NCBI GenBank assembly: GCA_964621305.1
Contig: CAZUOM010000007.1
Coordinates: 5,422-69,421, forward strand
Direction: 5' to 3'
DNA length: 64,000 nt
Source of the DNA: an uncultured Gammaproteobacteria bacterium
GTDB taxonomy: Bacteria; Patescibacteriota; Microgenomatia; UBA10105; UBA927
In this document: positions 5,041 to 52,031 of the stretch, one piece after another
Position numbering within the stretch: position 1 is the stretch's first letter
How the letters are laid out: each line of letters begins with the position of its first letter
Program-made: the position numbers and the translations under genes
Notes under the pieces: model-generated
The model's database searches: none
What the model was told of the DNA's origin: nothing
What the model saw: the letters and a program-made list of their open reading frames with translations, nothing else

Positions 5041-5781
5041 ATGTTAAAAAGATCTAATATAGTGGTCGTGATGCCTGCGTACAACGCAGCACGCACGCTT
5101 GGTGAGACAGTAAGAGAGATCCCCAAAGGCTTTGCAAAAAAAATTATCCTCGTGGATGACGGATCAACCGACGGTACAGTTGCTTTGGCCAAAAGGCTGG
5201 GCATCACTGTCTTCGCTCATCCGGTAAATACCGGCTACGGCGGAAACCAAAAAACGTGCTACTGGGAGTCGCTTAAGTTCAAACCTGATGTTGTCGTTAT
5301 GCTTCACCCGGATTACCAGTATGACGGTAGCCGACTGCCGAACTTGGTAGCCCCCATTTTATCCGGAGAATGCGGCATGATGATAGGTTCACGGATTCGC
5401 ACTCGGCACGAAGCCCTCGTCGGCGGTATGCCGGTCGTGAAGTATTTTTTAAATAGAATTCTGACGACAATAGAAAATATGGTGTTGGGGGTAAATCTAT
5501 CCGAGCATCTATCGGGTCTGCGAGCGTATTCTAGAAACGTCATCATGACGGTCCCGTTTCAGCGATTCTCCAACGATTTTGTTTTTGACCAGCAGTTCCT
5601 TATCTCAACGTTAACCCATGGTTTTCTCGTCGGCGAAATTCCGGTCCCAGTCCGTTACCACGAGAAGGCTTCATCAATCGGCTACCTTGCTGGCACCAAA
5701 TTTTTGTTGGAAACATTTTGGTGCTTATTGTTGTATGTCCTCCATTCGTTTCGTATCTACCGATCGACCTGGTACGAGTGA
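5041..5781 (+). CDS. Family 2 glycosyltransferase
   Basis: Motifs include VVVMPAYNAARTL, ILVDDGSTDGT and YQYDGS..L (GT-A fold). Confidence 0.85.
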   Translation: MLKRSNIVVVMPAYNAARTLGETVREIPKGFAKKIILVDDGSTDGTVALAKRLGITVFAHPVNTGYGGNQKTCYWESLKFKPDVVVMLHPDYQYDGSRLPNLVAPILSGECGMMIGSRIRTRHEALVGGMPVVKYFLNRILTTIENMVLGVNLSEHLSGLRAYSRNVIMTVPFQRFSNDFVFDQQFLISTLTHGFLVGEIPVPVRYHEKASSIGYLAGTKFLLETFWCLLLYVLHSFRIYRSTWYE

Positions 5782-9766: not shown

Positions 9767-11757
9767 GAAAGTTTTTTCTTCCGCTACTTCTATGCGGAGC
9801 CGTTGTAACTATCGTTTTTGGAAAAGCATTGTTTCCGGCGCCTGATCAGCTTATTTTTGGCGACGACGTACACCGGCAATATTATTTTTTTCGCCAGTAT
9901 TTTAATAATTCGATTCGCGAAGGGGCAGTCCCGTGGTGGAACCCGTATGTTTTTTCCGGTACTCCTTTTTTGGCAAATGCTCAAGTTTCGATGCTCTATC
10001 CCCTTAACTGGCTGTATGTAATTTTACCTCTTAATATCGCCTACTCTTGGTATTTTGCCATTCATGTTTTTATTGCCATGGTAACCATGTATTGGTTAGC
10101 CAAAGCGATGATGGGTAAAATATGCGGTTGGACCGCAGGAATTGTATTTGGACTGTCCGGTTATTTTATGGCTCGCACGATGGCAGGACAACCGGATGTT
10201 GTGGCTGCTGCCTCTTGGGCGCCTTTGGTTATCGGACTATTTATTAAAGTTATCAATGAAAAGACAGTAAGATCGATACTTCTTGCGGCAGCCGGGTTGG
10301 CAGTGCAGCTTTCAACAGGTTATCAAATCGTTACGCTTTTTACCTTAGAAGCGGTCGCGATCATTGTTTTTATCAACATTATTAAAGAGAAATCTTTACG
10401 TATGGCTTTACCGGTTATTGGAGCAGTTGTTCTTGCGTTGGGTTTGGCGGCAGTCCAACTTTTGCCTCAGCAAGAATTTTTCCGGCATTCAATTAGAACC
10501 GTTGATTTACCTTATAAATTTACAGCTAGTGGCGCCCATTCCCTGCGTGAGATGGTTACCCTTATTGACCCTTTTGCGCTGGGGGGCTATAACGACTATC
10601 AAGGATCTCCTCCCAATTATCACGAGCACGCCATTTATGTAGGAAAAGTAGCCCTTATTTTGGCTATCCTCGCGTTTGTTCTAGGTAGAGCTAAACCTTT
10701 TACACTCATTGCACTTTTTAGCGTCTGGGTATCGTTTGGGGCGAATGCGCCGGTAGATTTGCAATATCTTCTTTGGAAATTTACTCCGTTTTACCACTAC
10801 ATTCGTATCCCTTCCCGACACCTGGTTCTCTTTGTGTTAAGTGCCAGCATCCTTACCGGCTTTGGGTTGTCGCTTATTCGGAGTAGAGTAATCCAAATTT
10901 TTTTATCAGCAGTTATTATTCTTGAACTCGTGTTGGTTGGTCGAAATTTTATAGCTCTGGAAAAGTTACCAGAGTATCGGCATGATCAAGAACTTGTAAA
11001 CTTACTGAAATCAGATAGAGAGCTTTCTCGGGTTATCCAAAATTTTGGCGTGTGGGTGGTGCCGCGTGATAGGTTAGATTTTGGCAGCGCGATGAATTAT
11101 AAATTCTTTTCTGCAACCGGCTATGACCCATCGATTTTACGTAATTACTATGAATTTATAGACGCGGCTAATGGTGCTAAAGAGCCTAGCGTTATGAAGC
11201 ACAACGTGCAAGTTCCTTACTTAAACCCCAATTCTCCATACCTTAATTTTCTCAACATTAAATATGTTCTAGTGAACCCTGATTATGATCCGTTTGGAGG
11301 AAAATCAACTGATAGATTTAAATTAATCCTTGATAAAAAAGAAAAAACGTACAGGCTCTATGAAAATAAAGCCGTCCTTCCGCGATTCTTTTTATCAGAC
11401 TGCGGTGATACGGTTTCGGAACCGGTTGAAGTTAACAAATACTCAGGCAGTCAAATTGAACTAACTTCGAGTGCGACCTGTGATACAAAGCTTATATCAA
11501 GCGAAGTAATGTATCCTGGCTGGGAGGCAGCTATCGATGGCAGAAAGACCGCGGTATTAGCAACAAATCATGCGTTTCGATCGCTTCTAGTCCCGAAAGG
11601 CAGGCATAGCATAAAATTTTATTTTTTCCCACGAATTTACATCATTGGCGGTGTAATTTCTTTAGTGACTTTTCTAATTTGTTTACTTTTTTGGCACAAA
11701 GATAAAGAGGCCCGGGTTTTCATGGAAAACCTCAAGAAACGGATAAAATCTGTTTAG
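9763..11757 (+). CDS. YfhO-family membrane protein (GT-C type glycosyltransferase, 664 aa)
   Basis: It carries the canonical YfhO N-terminal signature (VHRQYYFFRQYF...GAVPWWNPYVFSGTPFLANAQVSMLYPLNW) and about 14 TM helices. Confidence 0.85.
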   Translation: MRKFFLPLLLCGAVVTIVFGKALFPAPDQLIFGDDVHRQYYFFRQYFNNSIREGAVPWWNPYVFSGTPFLANAQVSMLYPLNWLYVILPLNIAYSWYFAIHVFIAMVTMYWLAKAMMGKICGWTAGIVFGLSGYFMARTMAGQPDVVAAASWAPLVIGLFIKVINEKTVRSILLAAAGLAVQLSTGYQIVTLFTLEAVAIIVFINIIKEKSLRMALPVIGAVVLALGLAAVQLLPQQEFFRHSIRTVDLPYKFTASGAHSLREMVTLIDPFALGGYNDYQGSPPNYHEHAIYVGKVALILAILAFVLGRAKPFTLIALFSVWVSFGANAPVDLQYLLWKFTPFYHYIRIPSRHLVLFVLSASILTGFGLSLIRSRVIQIFLSAVIILELVLVGRNFIALEKLPEYRHDQELVNLLKSDRELSRVIQNFGVWVVPRDRLDFGSAMNYKFFSATGYDPSILRNYYEFIDAANGAKEPSVMKHNVQVPYLNPNSPYLNFLNIKYVLVNPDYDPFGGKSTDRFKLILDKKEKTYRLYENKAVLPRFFLSDCGDTVSEPVEVNKYSGSQIELTSSATCDTKLISSEVMYPGWEAAIDGRKTAVLATNHAFRSLLVPKGRHSIKFYFFPRIYIIGGVISLVTFLICLLFWHKDKEARVFMENLKKRIKSV

Positions 11758-13245
11758 ATCATTTGGCCCGTCTTGTTTATTCCAAAGAATATAACCAATG
11801 TTGTTTTTGGTCAGAAACTCTTGGGCTTGACCTTCCTTCATGAATCCAGAGTAAAAATCAAAAACCTCTTTAACTTTGCGATCGTAATCGTAGGTTAGGG
11901 TTCTATGTGCTGAATAGGTAGTAAGACCCGTGATAACCGGTACAAAAAATTCCAAATTATTTGTAGCCAAAACCACTCGATAGTCCTGCTTGTCTTTAAG
12001 GGAGGCCAACCCTTTATAAATGTCTTTATTTAAATAATTGAGCGGTGATGGAAGGTAATAAGAGGAAATTTTTTCTTTTAACTCTATTGCCAGGGGCGGC
12101 AGCTGTAGAAGAAAAAATCCTGCGAGTATTCCCGCGGCAACCCAAGCACGTAAGTTTTTTTTAAACAAGTTTCCAATAGCAATAACACCGAGATAGCTCA
12201 TTGCTCCAAGAAATACATATGCTGGAGGCTGTAAAAAGCGAAACACCGGCAGCTTAAAGAGAGCGGGAAGTGTAGAAAAATAAATTAGTATTGGAGCAAA
12301 AGCAAATAGACCGCCAAAAATTCTAAGTGGTGATTTTACTGAAAAAAAGGATTTTAATCCAACAAAGACTAGTGGCACTACGGCTCCCATCGAAAGAAGG
12401 AGAGTTAACGGCGCAACCGGAGCAAAACTAGTTTCCCATGAGCGCATCCACTGATAGAAAAAATGGGAAAAAGCCTGTTTCTCATGGATGACAATAGGAA
12501 GAGCAGTTGCCAAACTAAATAAAAGGGGAGTAAATAATTTTAGATTACCAAAATATACTAACCCTAAAAATATTACCAATGTATCGACTAGGAAATAAAC
12601 TGGAGCAATAATAAATAGAAACGTGAATGATAAAACTATTAAAACAGTCCATTTCCAAACAGGGGACTGGATAAATTGACTATATGTGTAGATAACTAGT
12701 AGCGAGAGAATATTTTGGGCGATCAAATGAGAAACTCCACCCAGACGGTTAAAAGCTGTTGTGTACGCATAAAAATAGGTTATGGGAGTTATTGCCGGCG
12801 GATTTGTTGATATGGTAAAAAAATTTGTACTCACCAGCGCAATTAGGAGACTAATTATGGCTCTCACCTTATTGTTTAGGAATAATGCTTGCAGTACTAA
12901 ATACATAAGGATAATGTAAAGGAAGCTCAAAATAACAACGCTAGCATCATAAACAAGCCAGGGGTATAGACCTGTAAGGCCAACAATTTTTCCGAGTATT
13001 ATGTTGTACCACCAAATCAAAGTCTGAGGGATAGCCTCGGTTGTAAATGAATTGCCAGTGAGCCACGCGCCCATTGCGCCCTGAGTTAAATGTGAAAGAT
13101 AAAAAAAGTAGTCCTCATACCAATGGGTGATTCCGATGTAGATTGTATTTACCGGCTGTTGTATCTTATAGACGATAAGCGCTAGGGAGTTAAGCATGGT
13201 GAATATTAGTGAGATAATCAAAACCAGAATCATAGATAGAGTCAT
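11683..13245 (-). CDS. Polytopic membrane protein of the YfhO-distant paralog family
   Basis: The N-terminus (THWYEDYFFYLSHLTQGAMGAWL) is a clear paralog of the ORF at 31594-33102. The C-terminal family domain is VVLATNNLEFFVPVITGLTTYSAH. Confidence 0.6.
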   Translation of the reverse strand: MTLSMILVLIISLIFTMLNSLALIVYKIQQPVNTIYIGITHWYEDYFFYLSHLTQGAMGAWLTGNSFTTEAIPQTLIWWYNIILGKIVGLTGLYPWLVYDASVVILSFLYIILMYLVLQALFLNNKVRAIISLLIALVSTNFFTISTNPPAITPITYFYAYTTAFNRLGGVSHLIAQNILSLLVIYTYSQFIQSPVWKWTVLIVLSFTFLFIIAPVYFLVDTLVIFLGLVYFGNLKLFTPLLFSLATALPIVIHEKQAFSHFFYQWMRSWETSFAPVAPLTLLLSMGAVVPLVFVGLKSFFSVKSPLRIFGGLFAFAPILIYFSTLPALFKLPVFRFLQPPAYVFLGAMSYLGVIAIGNLFKKNLRAWVAAGILAGFFLLQLPPLAIELKEKISSYYLPSPLNYLNKDIYKGLASLKDKQDYRVVLATNNLEFFVPVITGLTTYSAHRTLTYDYDRKVKEVFDFYSGFMKEGQAQEFLTKNNIGYILWNKQDGPNDLNRFYPFLEVFHENPGLFIFVPKK

Positions 13246-13248
13246 TAT

Positions 13249-15921
13249 ATGAGATATTCAAAGCTTATTGCTCTTTGTTCTTATGCGGTCATCGTCGTTA
13301 TTGTTTTTTCTCCTATTCTTTTTCCGCCGGCAGGTATGTTGTTATTCGGCAGTGATATCCACAGATCCTATCATTTTTTCCGGCAACTATTTCATGACTC
13401 TATTAGTACAGGACAATTTCCGTGGTGGAATCCGTACCTTTTTTCCGGAGAGCCACTAATCGCTAACCCCTCGGTTGCATTCTGGTACCCATTCAACTGG
13501 CTGTTTGCAGTTCTTCCGTACAGATTTGTTTACTCGTGGATTATTCCGATTCATATTTTTATTGCAATGACGGGAATGTACGTTTTTAGTTCAAAATTCA
13601 AAATTCAAAATTCAAAATTAGAAGAAAAGGTAGAAACACCATTTGATTTTGGTGCTTTTATTGCCGGTTTAATCTTTGGATTAAGTGGGTATTTCATGGG
13701 AAGGATTTGGGAAGGACATGTGGAGCTAATTCTTGCGGCAAGCTGGATGCCGTGGGTTATATTTACAAATGTCCAATGCCAAATGTCCAATGCCAAATGG
13801 AAAACACAATGTGTTATCGCAGCAGTTGTGTTTGCCATACAGCTTTATGCCGGGTATCACACCATTGCCTTATTTACACTAGAAGCGGTGTTAATTGTTA
13901 CATTGTTACACTGTTACATTGTTAAAAACATTAGGCCGCTTTTGCCGGCGATACTCTCTATAATCATTGGGTTAGGTTTGGCTGGACTTCAGATTATTCC
14001 CTCTCAGGAGTTTTTTAGTCGAAGCATTCGGACGTATGAACTTCCTTATTCATGGGCTGTCTTCGGTTCATACACGGTTGAAAACCTCAAGCAGATTTTT
14101 CAGCCGTTTATTCTGGGTGGGCCAGAGAGCTACAGCGGTCCAAGTCCCAATTTCGGTGAAATGGCGGCATACATCGGTGTTGTCCCGTTGGTGCTTGCTC
14201 TTCTTGGTATTGTGTGGGCAATAAAGCGCCGCGCGTGGATTTCAATTGCCATGATGGTTATTGCACTTTTTGGGTTATGGATTTCATTCGGTTGGAATGC
14301 TCCCGTGGATCTGAATAAAATCCTTTGGGACAGTGTCCCTACATATAAGTATCTGCGCATTCCGTCGCGGCACCTCATTCTTTTTGTTTTCGGTATGAGC
14401 TTCCTCGCCGGCGTCGGCCTTAGCTTCGCAAGGAGAGTCCTTGCGAAGCTAATTATTTCTCTGGTTATTGTTGTTGATCTGGTGTGGTTTGCTAAAACGT
14501 TTGTTACTCTTGCGCCCGATCCTTCCACACGGCACAGTAAAGAGCTTGTTGGTTATCTGCAAAAAAATTTGGGACTGGCGAGAATTTTGCCGAACTTTAA
14601 TGTCGGGATGGGAACGCGAGACGCTCTCGATTTCGATGCAGCAATGGGGTATAAATTTTTTTCCGCTTCCGGTTACGACCCGTCGATTCTGCGTAATTAC
14701 TACGAATTTGCGGCAGCCGCAGGGAAAATAGAAAACCCGGATGTCCAGCGAAGTGACGTTCAAATTCCATATCTAGTTCCCCAGTCTAGATACACTGACT
14801 TTCTTAATATCAAATATATTTTTGTTCCGTCGTGGTTTGACTCAGTTGCGGGATCATCAAAATTTTCTCCGGTGCTGGCAGAAAATATAAAAGATTTCTG
14901 GAAACTCTATGAAAATAAAAACATCTTTCCTCGGTTCTTTCTTGCGCCGTCGCTTGTAGTTTTCCCGACTCGAGACGGTGTTGCCCGGGCAATAAGAAAC
15001 GAGGATTATAATCCATCGGAGACAATATTGGTTGAAAGTTCAAGTATCAAAAATCAAAGTTTTTCACCAAGCTGTTTAGAAAAAAACCTTCCTCCTCCCG
15101 AAGTGCTTTCCTATTCTTACAATCGGATCGAGCTACTTACAAGTTCCTCATGTAATGCCTTTCTGGCAACTAGTGAGGTGATGTATCCCGGCTGGAGTGC
15201 AACTATTGACGGGAAAAAAACAGAGATTTTCGAGGGAAACCTTGCCTTTCGAACGCTCTGGGTGCCGGCGGGGGAACACAACATTGTTTTACAATATCAA
15301 CCCTGGATTTTTGTCGTAGGTTTTTTCGTGAGCATTGCGACAGTGGCAGGGTGTTTGATTTGGACCAAAAAGTCGGCACACAGTGTATTGGTGGTTCTGG
15401 ATCGGGACGGAACACTTATCAGAAACGAAGGATTTATTGGACGTGGAGACAAATGGATGAGTGAACTTGTCATTAATGCGCCTGTAGTGTGTTTTCTTTC
15501 TTATATACAATCCAAATATAAAACGATGATGATAGTTGTTAGCAATCAATCGGGCGTGGCCAGAGGGTATTTTGACGAAAAGCGAATCCGTGAGGTCAAC
15601 GAAGCAATCAATGAGCTTTTGAAAAAACAAGGCATTACCATAGATGGTTGGCAGTTTTGTCCGGATGTGGATGCGGTCTACGCGAAGGCTCGGCCCGAAA
15701 TTTTTTGGAACAAGCAGTACGTGAAAACGGCGACGAAACGAAAACCAGCAACCAAAATGGTTGACGACGCGCTTGGGCAACTTGGCAAAAAGATCGGAGA
15801 TTTTGACACGACGATTGTTTTAGGCAATAGCGAAGATGACGCGGAACTTGCCCGGGTCCTTGGCGCTGTCTGGATTGATGTCCGTGGGGCTAGCTATGAG
15901 AAGCTTGTTGCGTATCTATGA
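13249..15921 (+). CDS. YfhO-family membrane protein fused to a C-terminal GmhB-like HAD-IIIA phosphatase domain
   Basis: The N-terminal ~690 aa form a YfhO domain (HRSYHFFRQLF...FPWWNPYLFSGEPLIANPS). The C-terminus carries DRDGTLI, VVSNQSGVARGYF and ..CPD.., typical of D,D-heptose-1,7-bisphosphate / histidinol phosphatase HADs. The gene contains three short tandem repeat tracts. Confidence 0.8.
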   Translation: MRYSKLIALCSYAVIVVIVFSPILFPPAGMLLFGSDIHRSYHFFRQLFHDSISTGQFPWWNPYLFSGEPLIANPSVAFWYPFNWLFAVLPYRFVYSWIIPIHIFIAMTGMYVFSSKFKIQNSKLEEKVETPFDFGAFIAGLIFGLSGYFMGRIWEGHVELILAASWMPWVIFTNVQCQMSNAKWKTQCVIAAVVFAIQLYAGYHTIALFTLEAVLIVTLLHCYIVKNIRPLLPAILSIIIGLGLAGLQIIPSQEFFSRSIRTYELPYSWAVFGSYTVENLKQIFQPFILGGPESYSGPSPNFGEMAAYIGVVPLVLALLGIVWAIKRRAWISIAMMVIALFGLWISFGWNAPVDLNKILWDSVPTYKYLRIPSRHLILFVFGMSFLAGVGLSFARRVLAKLIISLVIVVDLVWFAKTFVTLAPDPSTRHSKELVGYLQKNLGLARILPNFNVGMGTRDALDFDAAMGYKFFSASGYDPSILRNYYEFAAAAGKIENPDVQRSDVQIPYLVPQSRYTDFLNIKYIFVPSWFDSVAGSSKFSPVLAENIKDFWKLYENKNIFPRFFLAPSLVVFPTRDGVARAIRNEDYNPSETILVESSSIKNQSFSPSCLEKNLPPPEVLSYSYNRIELLTSSSCNAFLATSEVMYPGWSATIDGKKTEIFEGNLAFRTLWVPAGEHNIVLQYQPWIFVVGFFVSIATVAGCLIWTKKSAHSVLVVLDRDGTLIRNEGFIGRGDKWMSELVINAPVVCFLSYIQSKYKTMMIVVSNQSGVARGYFDEKRIREVNEAINELLKKQGITIDGWQFCPDVDAVYAKARPEIFWNKQYVKTATKRKPATKMVDDALGQLGKKIGDFDTTIVLGNSEDDAELARVLGAVWIDVRGASYEKLVAYL
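13591..13618. repeat. (TCAAAAT)x4 heptanucleotide tandem repeat inside the YfhO-HAD gene
   Basis: Read directly from the sequence: ttcaaaattcaaaattcaaaatta. Confidence 0.9.
13768..13801. repeat. 14-nt unit (AAATGTCCAATGCC) x2.4, built from two imperfect heptamers, inside the YfhO-HAD gene
   Basis: Read directly from the sequence: aaatgtccaatgccaaatgtccaatgccaaatgg. Confidence 0.9.
13894..13925. repeat. (ATTGTTAC)x4 octanucleotide tandem repeat inside the YfhO-HAD gene
   Basis: Read directly from the sequence: attgttacattgttacactgttacattgttaa. Confidence 0.85.
15337..15921 (+). other. HAD-IIIA (GmhB/histidinol-phosphatase-like) phosphatase domain at the C-terminus of the YfhO fusion
   Basis: Motif I is DRDGT, motif II is SNQSG, and the Zn-site-like region is QFCPD. 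The domain follows the last TM helix, so it is predicted to be cytoplasmic. Confidence 0.7.
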
Positions 15922-18107
15922 AACTCCTCTTTCCGTTTTTGGCCTACGCAGTCGTCGTTCTTTTTGTATTTGATAAGGCATTGTATCCGAGTCAGAACGA
16001 AGTTATCTTCGGCCCGGATATCTGGCGATACCACTATTTTCAGCGTCCGTTCCTGGGCGAGTCGTTTCGAAGTGGCATCGTCCCATGGTGGAACCCGTAT
16101 ATCATGGGCGGTCAGCCATATCTGGAGCAGCCGCAGATTACGACGTGGTATTTACCAAACCTACTCTTTACGATCTTGCCAGCAAACAGGGCCATTTCTT
16201 GGTACTTGGCCCTTCATATTTTCTGGGCGATGGCGGGGATATACTTATTCATTTCAAATTTCAAATTTCAAATTTCAAATTTAGCTGCGTGGGCGGCAGG
16301 GATTGCATTTGGTCTGTCGGGGTATTTTGCTGCACGGATCTACGCCGGACACATTGACATAATTGCGGCATCAAGTTGGTTGCCGTGGGTGATCGCTTCG
16401 GTTGTCAGTTGTCAGGCGTCAGTTGTCAGTAGAAAAAGAAATTGTGTTATTACGGCAATATTTTTTGCCATGATGCTGTTGGCCGGGCATCAGATGGTAG
16501 CCGTGTACACGGTTGAGGCAATTGGGGTAGCGGCATTGGTTTATGCAGTTGTCCAACGGTCGCTCCGGCCACTTGTGATTTCAACCGTTTCCATCGCATT
16601 GGGTTTGGGCCTTGCGGCAATTCAGATTCTCCCCAATCATCAGCTCATTGCCAACAGCATCCGGACGATTCAACTGCCGGAAGCATGGTCCGTCATCGCC
16701 ACCCCAACCGCCGCGCACTTTCTTGAGTTTATCGACCCAACGTTCTTCTACGACCGACTGCCTGATGTAGGCTTGGGACACGAACACGTCGGCTACATCG
16801 GGAAAGTGCCTTTGTTGTTTGCAATCACCACAATCCTCTTTTTCTTTCTCCGGCGGAAAAAATCTGTTGAAATTTTGATCCTTATCATCCTGTCAATATT
16901 CAGCTTGTGGGTGTGGCTCGGACCAAACGCTCCGGTTGATATGTTTGCCGTCATGCGAAAAATCCTGCCGCTCTATGGACAGATCCGGATCCCGTCCCGG
17001 CATATTGTGTTGTTTATTTTGGCGGCAAGTGCCTTGTTTGGCATCGGGATGAGCAGGGTAAAAAACACCGTCGTCAGGCTGCTGCTTTGTGCGCTGGTGC
17101 TTCTTGATCTTATTCCGTTTGCGCGGGCAAATATCCATTTGGGTCAGATACCGGAAACACGGGAAGATGGGGAATTGGTCGCATTGCTTGCGGGTGATGA
17201 GGGATTATACCGGTTCCTGCCGGATTTTTACCATGGGCAACCGTTGCGGGACGCGTTGGAGTTTGATGCTCCGATAACCAAGCGCATATTCTCCGTTTCC
17301 GGCTACGAAACGCCGCCACTGCGAAACTATTGGGAGTTTTTGTTGGCAGTCAACAACCTGGATATTGCAAAAAACCTAGATTATATTGAAACGACACCAC
17401 CGTTTATAAATATTACTTCACCGTATCTAAATTTTCTTAACGTCAAATACATTCTTACTCCCACCGGGAGTGATTCTTTAGATGCATACCCTCGTCAATT
17501 TTCCCAAATAAAAGAGAATAAAGATCGTGGATATCGGGTTTATGAAAATAAAGAGGTTTTGCCGAGATTTTATTTTGTGCAAAATGCGGTTGTTGCTGCG
17601 CGGGCTACCATTGACGAAGCCATACGCGGGGGGAGCGGCGATCCCGGGACGATGGTCTATTTGGAACAGGAAACGATGCCTATCCCACGGCCGTGTTCGC
17701 AGACCACGACCCCAACAGTATCCGTAACAACCTATCAATCCGACCGGATTCTGTTGCAAATATCCAATCCGTGCGATTCGTATCTGGTTTCATCAGAAGT
17801 CATGTATCCCGGGTGGATGGCAACCATTGACGGGAAGGAAACAAAAATTGCGGTAGGCAATCTCGCGTTCCGGACGATCTTCGTGCCGGCTGGAGACCAT
17901 ATAGTCCAAATGCAGTATCGCCCCCGCATCGTGTACCTCGGTGCGCTCGTAAGTTTGGTTAGTCTTGTTGTTTTTTTCTGGTTGATCTATGATGACGGTC
18001 ATGGAATCGCAGTCAGGAAAAGTTTGCACACTTCGTCAGCTGGGCACAATCACCCAGCGTCTGAAGAAAGCCGGAAAAAAGATTGTTCTTTGCCATGGAG
18101 TGTTTGA
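15918..18107 (+). CDS. YfhO-family membrane protein (third tandem paralog)
   Basis: It carries the signature IWRYHYFQRPF...GIVPWWNPYIMGGQPYLEQPQITTWYLPN. It contains heptamer repeat tracts at 16254-16281 and 16401-16430. Its 3' end overlaps the next gene by about 118 nt. Confidence 0.8.
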   Translation: MKLLFPFLAYAVVVLFVFDKALYPSQNEVIFGPDIWRYHYFQRPFLGESFRSGIVPWWNPYIMGGQPYLEQPQITTWYLPNLLFTILPANRAISWYLALHIFWAMAGIYLFISNFKFQISNLAAWAAGIAFGLSGYFAARIYAGHIDIIAASSWLPWVIASVVSCQASVVSRKRNCVITAIFFAMMLLAGHQMVAVYTVEAIGVAALVYAVVQRSLRPLVISTVSIALGLGLAAIQILPNHQLIANSIRTIQLPEAWSVIATPTAAHFLEFIDPTFFYDRLPDVGLGHEHVGYIGKVPLLFAITTILFFFLRRKKSVEILILIILSIFSLWVWLGPNAPVDMFAVMRKILPLYGQIRIPSRHIVLFILAASALFGIGMSRVKNTVVRLLLCALVLLDLIPFARANIHLGQIPETREDGELVALLAGDEGLYRFLPDFYHGQPLRDALEFDAPITKRIFSVSGYETPPLRNYWEFLLAVNNLDIAKNLDYIETTPPFINITSPYLNFLNVKYILTPTGSDSLDAYPRQFSQIKENKDRGYRVYENKEVLPRFYFVQNAVVAARATIDEAIRGGSGDPGTMVYLEQETMPIPRPCSQTTTPTVSVTTYQSDRILLQISNPCDSYLVSSEVMYPGWMATIDGKETKIAVGNLAFRTIFVPAGDHIVQMQYRPRIVYLGALVSLVSLVVFFWLIYDDGHGIAVRKSLHTSSAGHNHPASEESRKKDCSLPWSV
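16254..16281. repeat. (TCAAATT)x4, i.e. a TTCAAAT heptamer tract, inside the third YfhO gene
   Basis: Read directly from the sequence: atttcaaatttcaaatttcaaatttcaaattt. It encodes ISNFKFQISN. Confidence 0.9.
16401..16430. repeat. (GTTGTCA)x4 heptamer tract (one imperfect copy) inside the third YfhO gene
   Basis: Read directly from the sequence: gttgtcagttgtcaggcgtcagttgtcagt. Confidence 0.85.
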
Positions 18108-19536
18108 TCTAGTACACCCCGGACACATCCGCTATTTTTCCTCTGCCAAAAAACACGGCGACATTCTCGTGGTAACACTCACGGCTGACCGGTTCGTCAG
18201 AAAAGGGCCGGGGCGGCCGGTATTTAACGAAAAACTCCGCGCAGAGTTTCTGGCAGCCATAGAGCTTGTTGACTATATCGCAGTTAGCAACAGTTACAGC
18301 GCAACGGTTGCCATCCAGGCTATCCGGCCAGACGTTTATGTGAAAGGCCCGGACTACAAATATCGAAAGCCCAACCCTTCTGTCTCCAGAAATCTCGGGA
18401 ATGAGGAAGCGGCGGTTGTCTCCGGCGGGGGAAAGCTCGTGTTCACCGATGACGTATTATTTTCCTCTTCTCATCTCATCAATGAATATATGGACGTATA
18501 CGATAAAAAAACGAAAGGTTTTTTGGATCAGCTTAAAACAACATATAGCGACGAATATTTGATTAAAAAACTCTGTTCAGTCAAACCGATAAAGGTTTTG
18601 ATTATAGGGGATGCGATTGTTGATCAGTATGTCTACTCTAATCCATTAGGAAAATCTTACAAGGAGCCGATTGTGGTCCACAAGTATTTAGAAGAAGAGA
18701 CATATGCAGGTGGGGCACTAGCAACGGCTAATCACGTAGCTGCGCTGTCGGATCACGTGAGGCTCGTGACCCTATTGGGTTCAAAACATTCCCACGAGCC
18801 GTTCATACGAAGACATTTACGAGTGGGCATCGTACCGAAATTTTTTTATCGAAGCGGCGAGTCAACCATTGTGAAGCGCCGCTATATTGATCAATATACT
18901 AACCAGAAGCTTTTTCAAATTAGTTATATCAACGATGAAGACATATCATTAGCACTTCAACGATCGGTTATGACATATTTAAAAAGGGAAATTCCCAAAC
19001 ACGATGTTGTGATAGTCAATGACTTTGGACACGGTTTTTTAACAACAAATATCATCGGATTAGTGTGCAAAGCATCCAAGTTTCTGTGTCTAAATGTGCA
19101 GGCAAATAGTGCCAACTACGGATTTCATATCATTACGAAATATCCGAGAGCGGATTTTGTCTGCATCGATGACCTAGAATTACGACTGGCTACCCACGAT
19201 CGCTCTGGTGAACAAGGAGCACTCATGAAACGGGTCTACGATAGGCTCCATTGTCAAACTATATTGGTGACCCGCGGGCCGTATGGGAGTACGATCTACT
19301 CTAAAAAAAGAGGGTGCCATGATGTACCATCTTTTGCCGGTTCCATTGTCGACCGCATGGGTGCTGGTGACGCACTTTTTTCTATCGTTTCGCCCTTGGC
19401 TTATTTGGGTGTTGCACAAAAAGCGATTGCCTTTATAGGCAACGTTGCTGCTGCTTTAAAAATTCAGACCGTGGGCAATAGAACACCGATTGATTTTATG
19501 GAGCTGACGAAATTTATTACCAGACTGCTCAAATAA
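17989..19536 (+). CDS. Bifunctional sugar-phosphate nucleotidyltransferase (cytidylyltransferase-like, RfaE domain II type) and PfkB-family sugar kinase. It is HldE-like but with the domain order reversed.
   Basis: The N-terminus shows the (H/T)xGH nucleotidyltransferase motif (IVLCHGVFDLVHPGHIRYF). The C-terminus shows a PfkB kinase signature (VLIIGDAIVDQY... GAGDALFS). Confidence 0.75.
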   Translation: MMTVMESQSGKVCTLRQLGTITQRLKKAGKKIVLCHGVFDLVHPGHIRYFSSAKKHGDILVVTLTADRFVRKGPGRPVFNEKLRAEFLAAIELVDYIAVSNSYSATVAIQAIRPDVYVKGPDYKYRKPNPSVSRNLGNEEAAVVSGGGKLVFTDDVLFSSSHLINEYMDVYDKKTKGFLDQLKTTYSDEYLIKKLCSVKPIKVLIIGDAIVDQYVYSNPLGKSYKEPIVVHKYLEEETYAGGALATANHVAALSDHVRLVTLLGSKHSHEPFIRRHLRVGIVPKFFYRSGESTIVKRRYIDQYTNQKLFQISYINDEDISLALQRSVMTYLKREIPKHDVVIVNDFGHGFLTTNIIGLVCKASKFLCLNVQANSANYGFHIITKYPRADFVCIDDLELRLATHDRSGEQGALMKRVYDRLHCQTILVTRGPYGSTIYSKKRGCHDVPSFAGSIVDRMGAGDALFSIVSPLAYLGVAQKAIAFIGNVAAALKIQTVGNRTPIDFMELTKFITRLLK

Positions 19537-20516
19537 TGATGAAAAACGTATTAGTTACTGGCGGGGCAGGATATATAGGAGCGTTATTGGTGCCACAATT
19601 ACTATCCCGCGGGTACTACGTAACAGTTCTTGATTTATTCCTTTATGGAGACGCGTTGGCAAAACACAAGAATCTTACTTTGGTAAAAGGCGATATCAGT
19701 GATAGGATGGTCATCGGGGAGACCTTACCCGGCGTTGACTGCGTCATTCACCTAGCGTGCATCTCTAACGATCCGAGCTTTGAGTTGAATCCGAAATTAG
19801 GAAAGTCAGTTAATCATGACGCAACCATTCAGCTTATTGACTTAGCCAAAACGGCAAGGGTTAAGCGTTTTATATATGCTTCAAGTTCCAGCGTCTACGG
19901 CGTCAAAAAAGAAAAAGATGTAACAGAAGATTTGCCTCTTGCGCCGCTGACGGATTATTCAAAGTATAAAGCGTTGTGTGAGGAGTATGTTTTGAAAAGT
20001 CAATCAAAAAATTTTACGACAGTGGTTTTGCGACCTGCTACAGTATGTGGGTTTTCTCCCCGGATGCGGCTTGATTTAACCGTGAACATGCTTACGATAC
20101 ATGCATTGGTGAATAAAAAAATTATCGTTTTTGGCGGGTCGCAACTCCGGCCTAACATTCATATAGCTGACATGTGCCGGGCATATGAGTTATTTTTGGA
20201 AGCTCCCGGTGAGTCGATTTCAGGAAAAATATTTAACGTAGGATATCAAAATCTTACTGTTATGGAAATTGCAAAAATGGTAAAACGAGTGCTTGCGGAT
20301 CGTTCGATAAAAATTGAAGTAAAACCAACCAACGATTTGCGCTCCTATCACATTTCTTCTGAAAAAATCAAAAAAGAACTGGGGTTTGTGCCGAAACACA
20401 CGGTTGAGGAAGCAATCATGGACATAAAGAAAGCATACGATCGCGGCTTTCTGCCGGACGCATTGACTGATAAACGATACTACAATATCCAGATGATGAA
20501 GTCAGTAACACTTTAA
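19536..20516 (+). CDS. NAD(P)-dependent sugar epimerase/dehydratase (extended SDR). It could be an HldD-like heptose 6-epimerase or a UDP-sugar epimerase.
   Basis: It has the Rossmann motif VLVTGGAGYIGALL, and YxxxK lies inside YSKYKALCEEY. Confidence 0.8.
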   Translation: MMKNVLVTGGAGYIGALLVPQLLSRGYYVTVLDLFLYGDALAKHKNLTLVKGDISDRMVIGETLPGVDCVIHLACISNDPSFELNPKLGKSVNHDATIQLIDLAKTARVKRFIYASSSSVYGVKKEKDVTEDLPLAPLTDYSKYKALCEEYVLKSQSKNFTTVVLRPATVCGFSPRMRLDLTVNMLTIHALVNKKIIVFGGSQLRPNIHIADMCRAYELFLEAPGESISGKIFNVGYQNLTVMEIAKMVKRVLADRSIKIEVKPTNDLRSYHISSEKIKKELGFVPKHTVEEAIMDIKKAYDRGFLPDALTDKRYYNIQMMKSVTL

Positions 20517-21463
20517 TGGAGAAAAAATTGCTTTATCAGATGTTGCGGATCCGCATGGTCGAGGAGGCGATTGCTGCCGAGTACGCGAAACAAGAGATGC
20601 GCTGCCCCACCCATCTCTGTATTGGACAAGAGGCAGTAAGCGTTGGCGTTTGTTCGGCGCTCAACAAAGAGGATGCGGTATTTTCCATGCACCGCAGCCA
20701 CGGGCACTACCTTGCGCGGGGAGGGAGTCTTCCTGCGATGATTGCTGAGCTCTACGGCAAAGCCACAGGTTGCAGCGGCGGAATCGGCGGTTCCATGCAC
20801 CTCATAGACAGATCAGTGAATTTTTTGGGAGCGACACCAATCGTTGCCGGATCTATCCCTGTTGCGGTTGGAGTTGCGCTAGCTCGTTTGATGCAAAATA
20901 AGCCGGGTGTCGCTGTAGCATTTTTTGGCGATGCGGCGCTAGAGGAGGGAACTGCCCATGAAAGCATGAATTATGCTTCCTTGAAAAAATTACCGGTTCT
21001 ATTTGTCTGCGAAAACAATCTTTATTCGACATTAACGCCTCTTGCATTGAGGCAGCCAAGGAGACCTATTTTTCAGGTGGCAAAGGGACATGAAACTGCC
21101 TCTTTTCAAGATGACGGCAATGATGTTTTAGCTGTTTGGCGCGTTGCGCAAAAAGCGCTTAAATTTATTCGATCCGGCAAAGGCCCAGTATTTCTGGAGC
21201 TTCTCACATATAGGTATCTTGAGCATTGCGGTCCAAACCCCGACCCGGATTCATTTCGGTCTATCAAAGAAGTCGCAGCATGGAGGAAAAAAGATCCGGT
21301 CGAGACGTTTAAACGATATTGTTTGCAGAAAAAAATAGTGCGTAAGGACGAAATACAAACTATGAAAAACGATATTTCAAAAGAAATTGAAAAAGCATTT
21401 ATTTTTGCAAAAAGTAGTCAGTTTTTAAACCTCAAACGCCTGGAGGATTTTGTCTATGCGTAA
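20516..21463 (+). CDS. TPP-dependent 2-oxoacid dehydrogenase E1 component, alpha subunit
   Basis: The sequence LYQMLRIRMVEEAIAAEY...HLCIGQEAVSVGV...HRSHGHYLARGG...GGIGGSMH is typical of PDH/acetoin-DH E1 alpha. Confidence 0.8.
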   Translation: MEKKLLYQMLRIRMVEEAIAAEYAKQEMRCPTHLCIGQEAVSVGVCSALNKEDAVFSMHRSHGHYLARGGSLPAMIAELYGKATGCSGGIGGSMHLIDRSVNFLGATPIVAGSIPVAVGVALARLMQNKPGVAVAFFGDAALEEGTAHESMNYASLKKLPVLFVCENNLYSTLTPLALRQPRRPIFQVAKGHETASFQDDGNDVLAVWRVAQKALKFIRSGKGPVFLELLTYRYLEHCGPNPDPDSFRSIKEVAAWRKKDPVETFKRYCLQKKIVRKDEIQTMKNDISKEIEKAFIFAKSSQFLNLKRLEDFVYA

Positions 21464-22529
21464 TTACAGAACCATTTCCTACGCTCAAGCTATCAAGGAT
21501 GCTCAGGAGCTAGCCCTCTCTCGTGACCCGTCGGTTTTTGTGATTGGCGAGGGAGTGCCGGATCCAAAAGGGATATTTGGGACTACAGTGGGACTGGCGG
21601 AAAAATTTCCGGCAAGAGTCTTAGACATGCCGGTTTCTGAAAATGGCATGACGGGTATTTGCATCGGAGCGGCTATTTCCGGTATGCGGCCGATCTTAGT
21701 TCACCAACGAATGGATTTTACGCTGTACTCTTTTGATCAAATAGTCAACAACGCCGCCAAGTGGTATTTTATGTTCGGCGGACAAGAGCCCGTACCGATG
21801 GTTATACGAATGATAATCGGCCGCGGTTGGGGACCAGGGCCGCAGCATTCGCAGAGTCTTCAAGCGCTCTTCGGTCATATTCCGGGATTAAAAGTTGTGA
21901 TGCCGGCAACAGTTTTTGATGCCAAAGGGCTCTTTATTTCGGCAATTGAAGACAACAACCCTGTAATTTTTATTGAGCATCGGTGGCTTCACAATTTGAC
22001 TGGCAACGTTCCAAAAGGATATTACACTGTGCCAATCGGTAAAGCCAAAGTTATTAAAAAAGGAACAGATATCACAATTGTTGCCACATCGTTTATGCTA
22101 ATTGAAACTTTGCGGATTGGTGCTGTTCTGGAGGAAAACGGGGTTTCAGCTGAAATTGTTGACGTTCGATCTATACGACCGTTTGATAGTAAAACTATTC
22201 TAACATCGGTTGCAAAAACCAGGCGACTCATCGTTTCTGATACTGGCTGGAAAACATTAGGGTTTGCCGCAGAGGTTTTGGCGCAGGTTACTGAAAGTGG
22301 CATTACGCTTAAGAATGCGGCTCAGCGCATTACCATCCCGGATATGCCTACCCCAACAAGCTGGAAACTGGCAGCGGACTATTATCCGACGAGCGTTGAC
22401 ATTTTGCGCGCCGGTTTACTAATGTGTGAAAAGACTACCAAAACAACGAACCAAATTGTCAAAGCATACAAAACAGCGATTAAAGGTTTTCCTGATCAGC
22501 CGGACCCGACCTTTACAGGACCGTTTTGA
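21450..22529 (+). CDS. TPP-dependent 2-oxoacid dehydrogenase E1 component, beta subunit (transketolase-like)
   Basis: The sequence ISYAQAIKDAQELALSRDPSVFVIGEGV...VLDMPVSENGMTGICIGAAISGMRPI matches E1 beta. It overlaps the alpha gene by 14 nt. Confidence 0.8.
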   Translation: MSMRNYRTISYAQAIKDAQELALSRDPSVFVIGEGVPDPKGIFGTTVGLAEKFPARVLDMPVSENGMTGICIGAAISGMRPILVHQRMDFTLYSFDQIVNNAAKWYFMFGGQEPVPMVIRMIIGRGWGPGPQHSQSLQALFGHIPGLKVVMPATVFDAKGLFISAIEDNNPVIFIEHRWLHNLTGNVPKGYYTVPIGKAKVIKKGTDITIVATSFMLIETLRIGAVLEENGVSAEIVDVRSIRPFDSKTILTSVAKTRRLIVSDTGWKTLGFAAEVLAQVTESGITLKNAAQRITIPDMPTPTSWKLAADYYPTSVDILRAGLLMCEKTTKTTNQIVKAYKTAIKGFPDQPDPTFTGPF

Positions 22530-23641
22530 GTATGAAAGTTCCATACGTATATTTGCGAAAACAGTTTGCCAAGCCAGGAAGCTATCTGCGAGATCTAGAG
22601 AAAATTGCCAAACGGGGTGATTTTACACTAGGGAGGGAGGTCAGACTATTTGAAAAGCGTGCAGCCTCTCTTCTGGGCGCCAAATTTGCAATTGGGGTTG
22701 GAAACGGCACCGACGCATTATATTTATCGCTCAAAGCTTTAGGTATTGGTCCGGACGACGAAGTAATAACTGCTCCCAACAGTTTTGTTGCAACGGCAGC
22801 GGCAATTGCTCTCACCGGCGCGAGGCCGGTGTTCGCGGATGTTCTCGACGATTACACGATCGACCCAGCGCTTATAGAAAAAGCCGTTACTAAAAAAAGT
22901 AAAATAATAATTCCGGTTCACCTGACCGGCCAGCCCTGCGACATGGGGTCAATCATGGCGATTGCCCAAAAGTACAACCTTTTTGTCGTTGAAGACGCAG
23001 CGCAAGCTTTTTTGGCTAAATACGATGGGAAATATTTGGGCACATTAGGTACGACCGGAGCTTTTAGTTTTCACCCTTTGAAAATACTCCACGTATGGGG
23101 AGACGGAGGGCTTATCGTCACAAATGACGAGAAAGTAGCTGTGAAACTAAGGCTCTGGCGCAATCACGGATTGAAAACTAGGAACGAAGTTGAGTTTTTT
23201 GCCAACAACAGTAGGCTTGATACCATCCACGCGGCAATTGCCCTGCGCATGCTTGGGCAGTTGCCGGGCATTGTGAAAAAACGCCAGCAGATTGCGGCAG
23301 AATACGACCGCTTGATTAAAGATCTTGCGCCACACGTTCGTCTGCCGGCCCGCACAATTTCCCAAAAACCAATTGCGCATACCTTCACCAACTACGTTGT
23401 AATGTGCGCAAGGCGCGACGAGCTTATTGCGTTTCTTGCCAAAAAAGGCATTGAAGCGGTAGTCCAGTATCCGACACCCATACACCTGCTGAAAGCAGCC
23501 CGCTATTTGGGATATAAAAAGGGAGATTTCCCCGTCTGCGAGAAGCAGGCCGATACCATCGTCACTTTCCCGTGTAACCAGTACATGACTACAAGAGATG
23601 TAGAGCATGTGGCCCATGCGATAAAAGAATTTTATGACTAA
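22526..23641 (+). CDS. DegT/DnrJ/EryC1-family PLP-dependent sugar aminotransferase
   Basis: Motifs include GVGNGTDALYLSLKALGIGPDDEVITAPNSFVATA and FSFHPLKILHVWGDGG. Confidence 0.85.
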   Translation: MSMKVPYVYLRKQFAKPGSYLRDLEKIAKRGDFTLGREVRLFEKRAASLLGAKFAIGVGNGTDALYLSLKALGIGPDDEVITAPNSFVATAAAIALTGARPVFADVLDDYTIDPALIEKAVTKKSKIIIPVHLTGQPCDMGSIMAIAQKYNLFVVEDAAQAFLAKYDGKYLGTLGTTGAFSFHPLKILHVWGDGGLIVTNDEKVAVKLRLWRNHGLKTRNEVEFFANNSRLDTIHAAIALRMLGQLPGIVKKRQQIAAEYDRLIKDLAPHVRLPARTISQKPIAHTFTNYVVMCARRDELIAFLAKKGIEAVVQYPTPIHLLKAARYLGYKKGDFPVCEKQADTIVTFPCNQYMTTRDVEHVAHAIKEFYD

Positions 23642-24335
23642 CGCAGTTACAGTAATCATGCCAGCGTTTAATGAGGAAAAAAATCTTGCTACGGCTGTTG
23701 CTAGCGCAACCAGAATTCTAAAAAAGACAGTTGAAGACCGCGAAATTATCATCATCGATGACGGATCAAAAGATGCGACTGGTCACGTTGCAGAAATTCT
23801 CGCCAAAAAAGATTCTCATATCCGGCTGATCCACAACAAAAAAAACATGGGATTAGGTAGCGGCCTGCGGCAGGGCATCAAGGCCGCACGCAAAACATAT
23901 GTGACACTATATCCGAGCGACAACGAAATGGATGCACAATCATTTCGGGATCTCGTTACTGCACGACACAAAGCAGACCTCGTAAGCTCATACACCGCCA
24001 ACCCCGAGGATCGGCCGTGGGTGCGACGGCTGATATCATCGTCGTTTGTGTTTTTGATCAATATATTGTTTGGATTGCGGCTTAGGTACTATACCGGGCC
24101 GTTTATCGCCAAAACCAAGTTATTGCAGAAAATTAAACTCGCTTCCGACGGCGTGACTCTTCTTGCGGAACTCAAAATCAGACTGCTCGCCCGGGGAGCG
24201 AGTTTTTCAGAAATTCCGTTTTTTTTTCGACAGAGACGATATGGAAAGGCAACGCTTTTTCGTTGGAAAACTGTACATCAAACTTTATTTACCCTATCCG
24301 TTCTTTTCCATGATAAACTTCTGGGGCGGCTATGA
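23634..24335 (+). CDS. Family 2 glycosyltransferase (DPM1-like)
   Basis: Motifs include VIMPAFNEEKNL and IIIIDDGSKDATG. A T9 homopolymer lies inside the gene at 24219-24227. Confidence 0.8.
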   Translation: MTNAVTVIMPAFNEEKNLATAVASATRILKKTVEDREIIIIDDGSKDATGHVAEILAKKDSHIRLIHNKKNMGLGSGLRQGIKAARKTYVTLYPSDNEMDAQSFRDLVTARHKADLVSSYTANPEDRPWVRRLISSSFVFLINILFGLRLRYYTGPFIAKTKLLQKIKLASDGVTLLAELKIRLLARGASFSEIPFFFRQRRYGKATLFRWKTVHQTLFTLSVLFHDKLLGRL

Positions 24336-28222: not shown

Positions 28223-28453
28223 ATGGATGTAATCGCTACCATCACGCCCAAGTTTCAGATCCACATCCCGGTCGCAATTCGAAAAAAGGCCGGATTTACG
28301 CAGCACGGGCTTGTGCGGATGCGCGCGGACAGGGGCAGGATCGTTATCGAAAAAAGGAAAGGGAAGAGCATCTTAGATCTTGCAGGCGCATTCCGAGTAA
28401 AAAATCCCATTCCGGCCGATAAAATACGGGACTACATTGACTATTCTCGATGA
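28223..28453 (+). CDS. vapB: AbrB/SpoVT (swapped-hairpin) family antitoxin, paired with the downstream PIN toxin
   Basis: The sequence MDVIATITPKFQIHIPVAIRKKAGF is an AbrB/MazE-type DNA-binding fold. The gene overlaps the PIN gene by 4 bp. Confidence 0.55.
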   Translation: MDVIATITPKFQIHIPVAIRKKAGFTQHGLVRMRADRGRIVIEKRKGKSILDLAGAFRVKNPIPADKIRDYIDYSR

Positions 28454-44022: not shown

Positions 44023-44166
44023 AAAACAATACGTAGAGGAATGGTGAAATCGGGGACACTGCGGCCGCTGCGATAAGGACTCCAAAAGCAACAAAGACTA
44101 TGACGGCCGGCACCATCCACCAGAGTTTATTTTTCCATACATAGACAAAAAGCTGTTTGATCATGG
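44023..44166 (-). CDS. Small (47 aa) single-TM protein, DUF5989-like carbamoyltransferase-associated micro-protein. It is absent from the ORF track.
   Basis: The minus-strand ORF encodes MIKQLFVYVWKNKLWWMVPAVIVFVAFGVLIAAAAVSPISPFLYVLF*. Its ATG overlaps the carbamoyltransferase stop. The ...SPISPF.Y.LF ending is characteristic of the small proteins found downstream of NodU/CmcH genes. Confidence 0.45.
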
Positions 44167-52029: not shown

Positions 52030-52031
52030 CT

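Follow-up and report, generated by a model that had tools for sequence, protein, structure and literature searches.

In Bacillus subtilis YfhO, a large extracellular loop lies between the last two transmembrane (TM) helices; for YfhO proteins, a catalytic role of either Asp in the GDD motif is not established (PMC5836110). Multi-component lipid-carrier glycosylation systems have been reviewed (PMC8035078), and we use them as the model for the glycosylation step outside the membrane. The heptose-1,7-bisphosphate 7-phosphatase GmhB has a zinc cap formed by CxH and CxC motifs located 5-13 residues apart, and its catalytic motifs are DxD and DxxxD (PMC9798254). Here we describe an open reading frame (ORF) in which a YfhO-family GT-C glycosyltransferase continues into a GmhB-like HAD-IIIA phosphatase. 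The ORF is located in a 64,000-nt stretch of contig CAZUOM010000007.1 (the window), from an uncultured, Gottesmanbacteria-like genome. We consider it reasonably probable that this fusion is real and specific to its lineage, that it arose in frame as a by-product of the deletion of a redundant adenylyltransferase (AT) domain, and that the two halves act independently, with no channelling between them needed.

The glycosyltransferase half resembles the described YfhO family in its PF09586 match, its GT-C fold, the large outside domain before the final TM helix, and its short basic tail (PMC5836110, PMC8035078), as well as in the small GT2 genes found nearby. However, it is shorter (~700 aa, compared to ~860-1000 aa in Firmicutes, with 24-31% identity to the long forms), it is one of three tandem paralogues in the window, the window yielded no GtrA-type flippase, and a C-terminal enzyme domain is present in no other homologue retrieved. 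The phosphatase half shares with GmhB and HisB-N the DxD motif, an SNQ motif II, an RKP motif III, and the cap-less C0-type small HAD fold, and HldE-like kinase and AT domains adjoin it. In contrast to these enzymes, it lacks the CxH and CxC motifs, having CPD...TKRKP with an insert of ~20 residues; it reads G-N-S-E-D-D where they have GDxxxD; it scores 45-65 bits against cut-offs of 150-178; and it is tethered to the membrane.

A closer counterpart is provided by proteins in which an AT domain precedes the HAD domain. These AT-HAD proteins (~350-364 aa) occur in Gottesmanbacteria, other Patescibacteria, and Woesearchaeota, and are recorded as "rfaE nucleotidyltransferase chain" (JGI) or "HAD-IIIA family hydrolase" (NCBI). 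We denote their AT domain AT_H, and the one that is joined to a kinase AT_K. The HAD domain in the window is the orthologue of the C-terminal half of AT_H-HAD, and the two share their position in the locus, their subfamily motifs, and their overlap with a downstream YfhO gene; however, the window ORF has no N-terminal AT, and instead a 706-residue membrane glycosyltransferase, ending in a TM helix, precedes the HAD domain. Compared to HldE (RfaE), the bifunctional kinase and adenylyltransferase of ADP-heptose synthesis, a neighbouring 515-aa protein has both domains in reversed order, AT first and kinase second.

We computed the ORF, domains, orthology, synteny, a topology estimate, the position of the junction, the division of the AT domains into two lineages, and whether the halves are intact; related loci and proteins are referred to by number (L and P, respectively). 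The ORF encodes 890 aa followed by a stop codon, begins with ATG, and contains no internal stops. An identical 890-aa protein (P0001) is on record from assembly GCA_005239695.1 (contig SBBN01000017.1). The GC content, the GC content at third codon positions (GC3), and the codon usage are continuous across the junction, and no repeat was found flanking it. Scanning for promoters and terminators revealed no sign that the HAD domain has an internal start of its own, and no obvious Shine-Dalgarno sequence is located ahead of the in-frame TTG and GTG codons at 15388-15393.

At the level of individual bases, the DNA from position 15361 reads TGG ACC AAA AAG TCG GCA CAC AGT GTA TTG GTG GTT CTG GAT CGG GAC GGA, and the peptide across the junction (15361-15420) is ...GCLIW-TKKSAHSV-LVVLDRDGTLI.... 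The corresponding gene of the relatives (YfhO2) ends in TGT TTG ATT TGG ATG AAA AAG CGG GTA TGA, giving a protein tail of KKRV before the stop. The window has TGT TTG ATT TGG ACC AAA AAG at this place and then continues with sequence collinear with the linker between AT and HAD in the relatives. The KK of the window corresponds to the KK of the relatives' tail, and SAHSV corresponds to their linker SKRLL. The boundary between AT and HAD in the relatives is ...YIQQKIPSKRLL(V/I)(V/I)LDRDGT, where the window has ...CLIWTKK-SAHSV-LVVLDRDGT. Relative to its kin, the window is missing the YfhO stop codon, a spacer of ~20 nt, and the whole AT domain, amounting to ~0.55 kb.

In the seven loci of the closest relatives (L002-L008) the gene order is YfhO2, then AT (170-171 aa) or AT-HAD (351-360 aa), then YfhO3. 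The AT of these relatives, an RfaE-domain-II-like adenylyltransferase, begins a separate gene directly 3' of the orthologous YfhO gene. Identity to the corresponding part of the fusion is 59-69% for the HAD halves and a comparable 54-66% for the YfhO2 proteins. In both the window and L002, the HAD stop overlaps the start of YfhO3 by 4 nt (ATGA).

The AT domains fall into two groups by pairwise identity: 46-64% within AT_K, 69-79% within AT_H, and 36-44% between them. The AT of the window's AT-kinase is 38-42% identical to the AT of the relatives, which are 73-90% identical to one another. One locus (L085, 8295-12809) holds both types, in the order DegT, AT_H-HAD, AT_K-kinase, epimerase, and SIS_2 (GmhA-like). 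The window keeps AT_K only; the split-type relatives keep AT_H only, and their standalone kinases retain the linker of the AT-kinase. The pathway thus occurs in three layouts: AT_H-HAD with AT_K-kinase (L085); AT_K-kinase only (L036, L038, and L039, where the pathway region is 10001-13340); and AT_H, with or without HAD, plus a standalone kinase (L002-L008). Because the pairwise identities separate the two groups, the sequences point to two paralogous AT lineages, with reciprocal loss of the redundant AT domain in sister lineages. Two proteins considered as trifunctional AT-kinase-HAD fusions (P0487 and P0501, 668-687 aa) turned out to be AT-AT-kinase.

From these comparisons we infer the deletion mechanism, as well as substrates and activity. 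The ancestor would have carried a soluble AT_H-HAD gene directly 3' of a YfhO gene, together with an AT_K-kinase gene, its two AT domains being the state seen today in L085. A deletion of ~0.55 kb would then have removed the YfhO stop, the short spacer, and the entire AT_H domain, so that the cytoplasmic KK tail behind the last TM helix of YfhO became attached to the old linker between AT and HAD. A join at this old interdomain linker would be the signature of the deletion of a redundant AT domain. In the resulting protein, the GT-C/YfhO domain would act on the outside, where it would take a sugar from a polyprenyl-phosphate carrier and pass it to an acceptor in the envelope. Inside, the kinase half of the AT-kinase would make a heptose-1,7-bisphosphate-like compound, the tethered HAD domain would take off its 7-phosphate, and the AT_K half would then activate the resulting sugar-1-phosphate. 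The ancestral HAD domain was cytoplasmic to begin with and was joined at its N-terminus through a short linker, so the tether would be tolerated. In the HAD fold, strand 1 begins at the edge opposite the active site; attachment through the N-terminus should thus not obstruct access of solutes to the site, as in the AT-HAD proteins.

Residues 1-706 of the fused protein match the Pfam YfhO family (PF09586) with 38.2 bits against a cut-off of 28.5; the match covers residues 617-695 and the C-terminal part of the profile only. About 100 full-length YfhO homologues with 37-65% identity carry PF09586, and many of them are labelled Candidatus Gottesmanbacteria or Patescibacteria. The YfhO homologues and the HAD proteins were aligned separately (alignments A2 and A4). 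A mixed MAFFT alignment (A1) was dropped because short HAD proteins were misplaced in it, with 10-18% identity to the first row. An AlphaFold model of the fused protein, built on 50 YfhO homologues, is confident for residues 1-706 (predicted template modelling score, pTM, 0.80; predicted local distance difference test, pLDDT, mostly >90); its HAD part has low confidence, and the relative placement of the domains cannot be read from it. In a Foldseek search, the solved-structure neighbours of the glycosyltransferase half were all GT-C enzymes (AftD, STT3, PglB, AftA, AglB, and ArnT; E 2.6e-8 to 1.6e-4, probability 1.00). The family's GDD motif, located in the first outside loop, reads G34-S35-D36 in the window. 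The invariant D36 is kept; at position 35, 46 of the 50 alignment rows (window included) have D, two have S, and two have N. This substitution (D35S) is the only departure of the YfhO part from the consensus in 127 columns conserved at ≥90%; the family median is four. The SEVMYPGW motif sits in the beta-rich domain (417-685).

The map of TM helices was taken from the AlphaFold model, as a scan based on hydropathy only missed weakly hydrophobic N-terminal helices. The map predicts 12 helices: eleven, followed by the beta-rich domain and a final helix (686-706) with a mean hydropathy of 2.09. With the N-terminus set inside, the density of Lys and Arg is 0.25 in the inside loops versus 0.067 in the outside loops. 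Because of this skew, the beta-rich domain is predicted to be outside and the chain beyond residue 706 to be cytoplasmic (N-in/C-in). The basic KKRV tails of YfhO in the relatives agree with the C-in topology.

A perfect 33-nt palindrome, TTAGCTTCGCAAGG-AGAGT-CCTTGCGAAGCTAA, is located at 14420-14452, in frame in the YfhO part, where it encodes ..LSFARRVLAKLI... It is also present at 9400-9432 in L006, 2220-2252 in L007, and 3767-3799 in L059; an unrelated contig has the same arms, as do relatives with protein identities of only ~58%. The peptide SFARPGLAKL is found at varied positions in the YfhO proteins of relatives, including the C-terminal tail of YfhO3 in L002. By analogy, the palindrome looks like a short element that inserts in frame, reminiscent of the Rickettsia palindromic elements. 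The variable loops of the YfhO paralogues also contain low-complexity peptides (NVQCQMSNAKWKT or KCQMSNVKCQMSNV, and ISNFKFQISN), at ~13760-13800 and ~16250-16290 in the window and in the relatives P0002, P0004, and P0007; the same stretches can be read as ORFs in other frames too, and could represent additional palindromic or repeat insertions that are translated.

The C-terminal 195 aa match the HAD-IIIA profile TIGR01662 at 55-60 bits (60.4), above the cut-off of 44.6. The scores against more specific profiles fall below their cut-offs: 75.6 versus 84.15 bits for the histidinol-phosphatase domain (TIGR01656), 65 versus 178 for the GmhB equivalog NF006506, 49.8 versus 149.6 for the GmhB-type TIGR00213, and 33.7 versus 250 for NF050049. 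All four HAD motifs can be placed: motif I (DRDGTLI) with D718-x-D720, motif II, VVSNQSGVARGYF (VVSNQSG), with S765, motif III with K832 (RKP), and motif IV with G859-N-S-E-D863-D864. FCPD is present, and the cap region, C804-P-D...T-K-R-K-P, has no Zn ligands. When modelled alone, the HAD domain has a pLDDT of 95.7. Its closest solved folds are the GmhB proteins of E. coli and B. bronchiseptica (2gmw, 3l8e, and 3l8h; E 1e-10 to 6e-9, TM-score 0.65-0.70), followed by HisB-N (2fpr) and PNKP, whereas phosphoserine phosphatase ranks 45th; a phmmer search against the PDB gave the same order. No other GmhB-like domain is present within the 64-kb window.

With respect to the features that define GmhB, the DxD motif is present, DxxxD is replaced by N860-S-E-D863-D864, and only the first Cys of the zinc cap is kept, with TKRKP following ~24 residues after C804-P-D, a trait of the subfamily. 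All 93 sequences compared share the last Asp of motif IV; the Asn is characteristic of the AT-HAD subfamily. These departures in the zinc cap and in motif IV are common to the AT-HAD relatives (~50 clusters) and are therefore not signs of decay. Against a hidden Markov model (HMM) of 63 relatives, the domain scores 266.6 bits (median 266.8) and matches 35 of the 36 columns conserved at ≥90%. Judged by their sequences, both halves are intact and look functional, and a dead or repurposed HAD domain appears unlikely given its conservation. Membership in the GmhB family is only partial, and heptose-1,7-bisphosphate is a candidate substrate, all equivalog scores being below their cut-offs.

An initial annotation, made from the letters of the window, had described an uninterrupted YfhO-HAD reading frame with about 195 aa after the last TM helix, and had named DRDGTLI, the second motif, and FCPD. 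The reading frame and the motifs are as it described, and the length it gave is correct, give or take the last TM helix; the HAD fold itself comprises residues 714-890. The profile and fold searches bear out that the domain is no phosphoserine phosphatase, and the predicted topology places it on the cytoplasmic side, as the annotation had proposed. The proposed GmhB/HisB-type subfamily stands as far as the HAD-IIIA profile and the nearest folds are concerned; it does not extend to the equivalog cut-offs, the zinc cap, or DxxxD.

The same fusion was sought in several collections. With the full-length protein as query against 5.8 billion protein clusters, only the fused protein itself reached 100% coverage; ~98 YfhO homologues covered 53-80% of the query, and the close ones end just past the last TM helix. 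An exhaustive phmmer search of 1.84 billion representatives with the HAD domain found no YfhO partner; apart from a few fusions of other kinds, the matches were AT-HAD proteins (350-364 aa) and standalone proteins (~170-230 aa). A search of 90%-identity clusters with the HAD query also returned no YfhO-HAD protein, but as it did not return the fused protein itself, it cannot alone exclude other long fusions. GTDB genomes and JGI metagenomes were scanned with a query of 180 residues that spans the junction; the 27 GTDB loci and 45 metagenome loci recovered each match one side only. Two of these loci (L061 and L066) matched slightly past the junction (up to query residues 107-114); they have ordinary YfhO tails with a stop and no HAD domain. 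The YfhO-HAD fusion is a singleton among the collections searched, in line with the initial annotation's view of the architecture as unusual.

GmhB-like HAD domains are also found in fusions with a GT9 heptosyltransferase (six representatives), Wzy_C, NTP_transferase, and SIS (P0238, P0236, P0240, P0261, P0203, P0216, P0249, P0235, and P0141). The Wzy_C-HAD protein (P0238) is likewise a polytopic membrane glycan enzyme (O-antigen-ligase-like) with a C-terminal GmhB-like HAD domain. In contrast to the fusion in the window, the partners are never GT-C or YfhO, and the HAD domains are more distant (~34-42% identity over the matched stretch).

A singleton from one metagenome-assembled genome (MAG) could be an assembly or consensus artefact, in which separate YfhO and (AT-)HAD genes were mis-joined from two strains or from a collapsed region. 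The AT-HAD and AT-kinase layouts both circulate in related populations, and the window mixes features of both. However, the join is in frame and requires no base-call error. A mis-join would need a k-mer shared between the 3' end of YfhO and the linker between AT and HAD, and none is evident, only about AAAAAG being shared. Both flanks are collinear with the relatives, and the continuous composition and codon usage as well as the lack of a flanking repeat also speak against a mis-join. We regard an artefact as unlikely.

The fusion might also be adaptive, with a phosphatase tethered at the cytoplasmic face next to GT-C, GT2, and AT-kinase as a metabolon that channels heptose intermediates to the loading of the lipid carrier. 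Both halves are fully conserved, the domain is the sole GmhB-like one of the window, so that the pathway here depends on it, and GmhB-like domains have repeatedly been fused to heptose-using or glycan enzymes elsewhere. Nevertheless, the architecture recurs in no collection searched; the metabolic neighbours of the phosphatase are the soluble kinase and AT, whereas the GT-C active site is across the membrane; and the ancestral, widespread fusion of HAD to AT, which the window has lost, couples the steps more directly. Such tethering seems improbable to us. The initial annotation had the fusion physically couple dephosphorylation to the glycosylation machine; this we do not uphold, given that the fusion is a singleton, that the HAD domain of the relatives is part of a soluble AT-HAD protein, and that the join is at an old linker. 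Were the tether functional nonetheless, which we think still harder to credit, it would form a membrane complex of AT-kinase, phosphatase, GT2, and GT-C for activating heptose and loading it onto the lipid carrier. By Rosetta-stone logic, it would then mark the YfhO paralogues of Patescibacteria as transferases of polyprenyl-phosphate-carried, heptose-derived sugars. To our knowledge, no YfhO enzyme has been described that uses a donor of this class.

That the HAD domain is an inactive passenger or has another role (sterically blocked, or acting on another phospho-sugar or a lipid-linked phosphate) would fit the equivalog scores far below the cut-offs, the missing CxH/CxC cap, the NSEDD of motif IV in place of DxxxD, the linker of merely 7 residues, and the relatives L003-L005, which manage without a nearby HAD, but it is very doubtful, as the deviant motifs are common to the AT-HAD subfamily and not fusion-specific decay, the domain scores at the family median, the geometry of the fold should leave the active site open, and the kinase and AT context, with GmhA in relatives, fits a heptose route.

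Several observations weigh against a by-product of AT deletion with a working heptose-type phosphatase. Between the S of the linker and LDRDG, the window contains one additional codon compared to the relatives, and the deletion is reconstructed from relatives that are only 54-69% identical. The fusion is known from a single assembly and a single MAG, and the second recorded contig with the protein may not be independent. All HMM scores for the heptose pathway are below the equivalog cut-offs, and the zinc cap and DxxxD of GmhB are absent. The 7-residue linker puts a Rossmann-like fold very near the membrane, where its activity is only predicted. No GmhA/SIS gene was found in the 64-kb window by Pfam or by tblastn with the SIS protein of L039 and an approximate E. 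coli GmhA sequence, and the absence of a GtrA-type flippase refers to the scanned ORFs of the window, which is part of the genome only. In L003-L005, AT stands alone and the retrieved DNA contains no HAD, so that the HAD step may be dispensable there or done by another enzyme.

The fused gene is part of a large envelope-glycosylation region that comprises the three tandem YfhO paralogues, PMT_2-type GT-C proteins, SDR epimerases, E1 alpha/beta-like TPP enzymes, DegT aminotransferases, methyltransferases, and four short GT2 genes (Table 1).

Table 1. Features of the fused ORF and of selected neighbouring genes in the window.
Feature	Position	Strand	Assignment or evidence
Whole fused ORF	13249..15921	+	YfhO-family GT-C glycosyltransferase with C-terminal GmhB-like HAD-IIIA phosphatase
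GT-C membrane core, residues 1-416, TM1-TM11 and first outside loop	13249..14496	+	AlphaFold, Foldseek
Beta-rich extracytoplasmic domain, residues 417-685, between TM11 and TM12 (predicted)	14497..15303	+	Pfam match, AlphaFold
TM12, residues 686-706, WIFVVGFFVSIATVAGCLIWT, predicted to bring the chain back to the cytoplasm	15304..15366	+	Model helix, hydropathy
Fusion junction, K707-K708-S-A-H-S-V713, 7-residue linker	15367..15387	+	Codon and peptide comparison
HAD-IIIA GmhB-like phosphatase domain, residues 714-890	15388..15918	+	Profiles, model
YfhO1, upstream paralogue, 664 aa	9763..11757	+	Pfam
YfhO3, downstream paralogue, 729 aa, ATG overlaps the fusion stop (ATGA)	15918..18107	+	Pfam
AT-kinase ("reversed HldE", 515 aa), AT_K AT then pfkB kinase	17989..19536	+	RfaE domain II-like / domain I-like
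SDR sugar-nucleotide epimerase/dehydratase, after the AT-kinase in all related loci	19536..20516	+	Family scan, synteny
Short GT2 (GT-A), polyprenyl-phosphate-sugar synthase size class	23634..24335	+	NCBIfam neighbours
Other short GT2 genes (four in the window altogether)	693-1412, 5041-5781, 34613-35332	-, +, +	

The best NCBIfam neighbours of the short GT2 genes are ArnC, PpgS, AglJ, and dolichyl-P-hexose transferase, all below cut-off; their products are candidates for synthesizing the lipid-linked donor that the YfhO paralogues would use. The AT-kinase, two genes downstream of the fusion, has its best NCBIfam match to HldE (172.5 bits) and matches the rfaE domains I and II, below the equivalog cut-offs. 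It has >100 full-length homologues with 49-81% identity, and the reversed domain order is widespread in Patescibacteria. This enzyme would supply the substrate of the HAD phosphatase and consume its product. GmhA-like genes adjoin the same set of AT-kinase and epimerase in L039 and L085, which supports a heptose-type route; the SIS_2 protein of L039 scores 100.9 bits against gmhA (TIGR00441), below the cut-off of 209.

The start of the AT-kinase is placed at 17989 by P0387 (81% identity, 515 aa) and by the AT homology of the relatives, which runs from residue 1. With this start, the gene appears to overlap the 3' end of YfhO3 by 119 nt (17989-18107). YfhO3 has an unusual tail of ~40 residues beyond its last TM helix. 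The recorded gene model starts the AT-kinase at 18100 (478 aa) and would drop the first strand and the CHG ahead of the HxGH nucleotide-binding motif.

Pairs of thiamine pyrophosphate (TPP) enzymes, E1 alpha/beta-like or transketolase-like, are located at 20516-22529 in the window, 13534-15302 in L037, and 16045-18059 in L039. They adjoin the epimerase and the DegT aminotransferase and are kept within sugar-nucleotide loci, which suggests that the activated sugar receives a two-carbon branch or has its chain modified. A hydrophobic ORF of 516-520 aa with no family match is encoded on the minus strand between YfhO1 and the fusion (11683-13245), with only ~3-15 nt between its start and the divergent start of the fused gene. 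At the equivalent place, the relatives have a GT2 gene and an unknown gene of 370-403 aa, also on the minus strand. Further downstream, eight consecutive ORFs of 376-772 aa on the same strand (46221-56700) have no Pfam match; a carbamoyltransferase (44161-45864) is encoded on one side of this run and an FG-GAP/ASPIC protein (56710-58647) on the other.

Genes for PIN-domain toxins are present in the window at 28450-28863 and 38899-39315, and toxin-antitoxin pairs occur in the glycosylation loci of relatives (L003 14474-15108, L007 6933-7611, and L037 8212-8911). L002 has a Y1 transposase at 13621-14337. The toxin genes and the transposase mark the interval between YfhO3 and the kinase as variable and prone to rearrangement. 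Two records with a YfhO locus of the Gottesmanbacteria type, L010 (CAZLDC010000006.1) and L015 (SCSP01000311.1), are titled "uncultured Gammaproteobacteria bacterium" and "Bacteroidetes bacterium", respectively; the same contig is also the source of L005. These titles probably reflect errors in binning or labelling.

As a designed coupling device, the fusion is probably unimportant, being an event in one genome. It is an example of domain reshuffling in the streamlined genomes of the Candidate Phyla Radiation (CPR), in which a soluble enzyme would have been welded to a membrane protein with neither being damaged. The protein is better annotated as [quoted passage not shown] than as YfhO alone. 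Together with the gene order YfhO, AT-HAD, YfhO ... kinase, epimerase, GmhA-like, the fusion links a candidate heptose-type nucleotide-sugar pathway to extracytoplasmic glycosylation of the YfhO type in Gottesmanbacteria, and this provides a testable hypothesis on the surface glycans of these uncultured bacteria.

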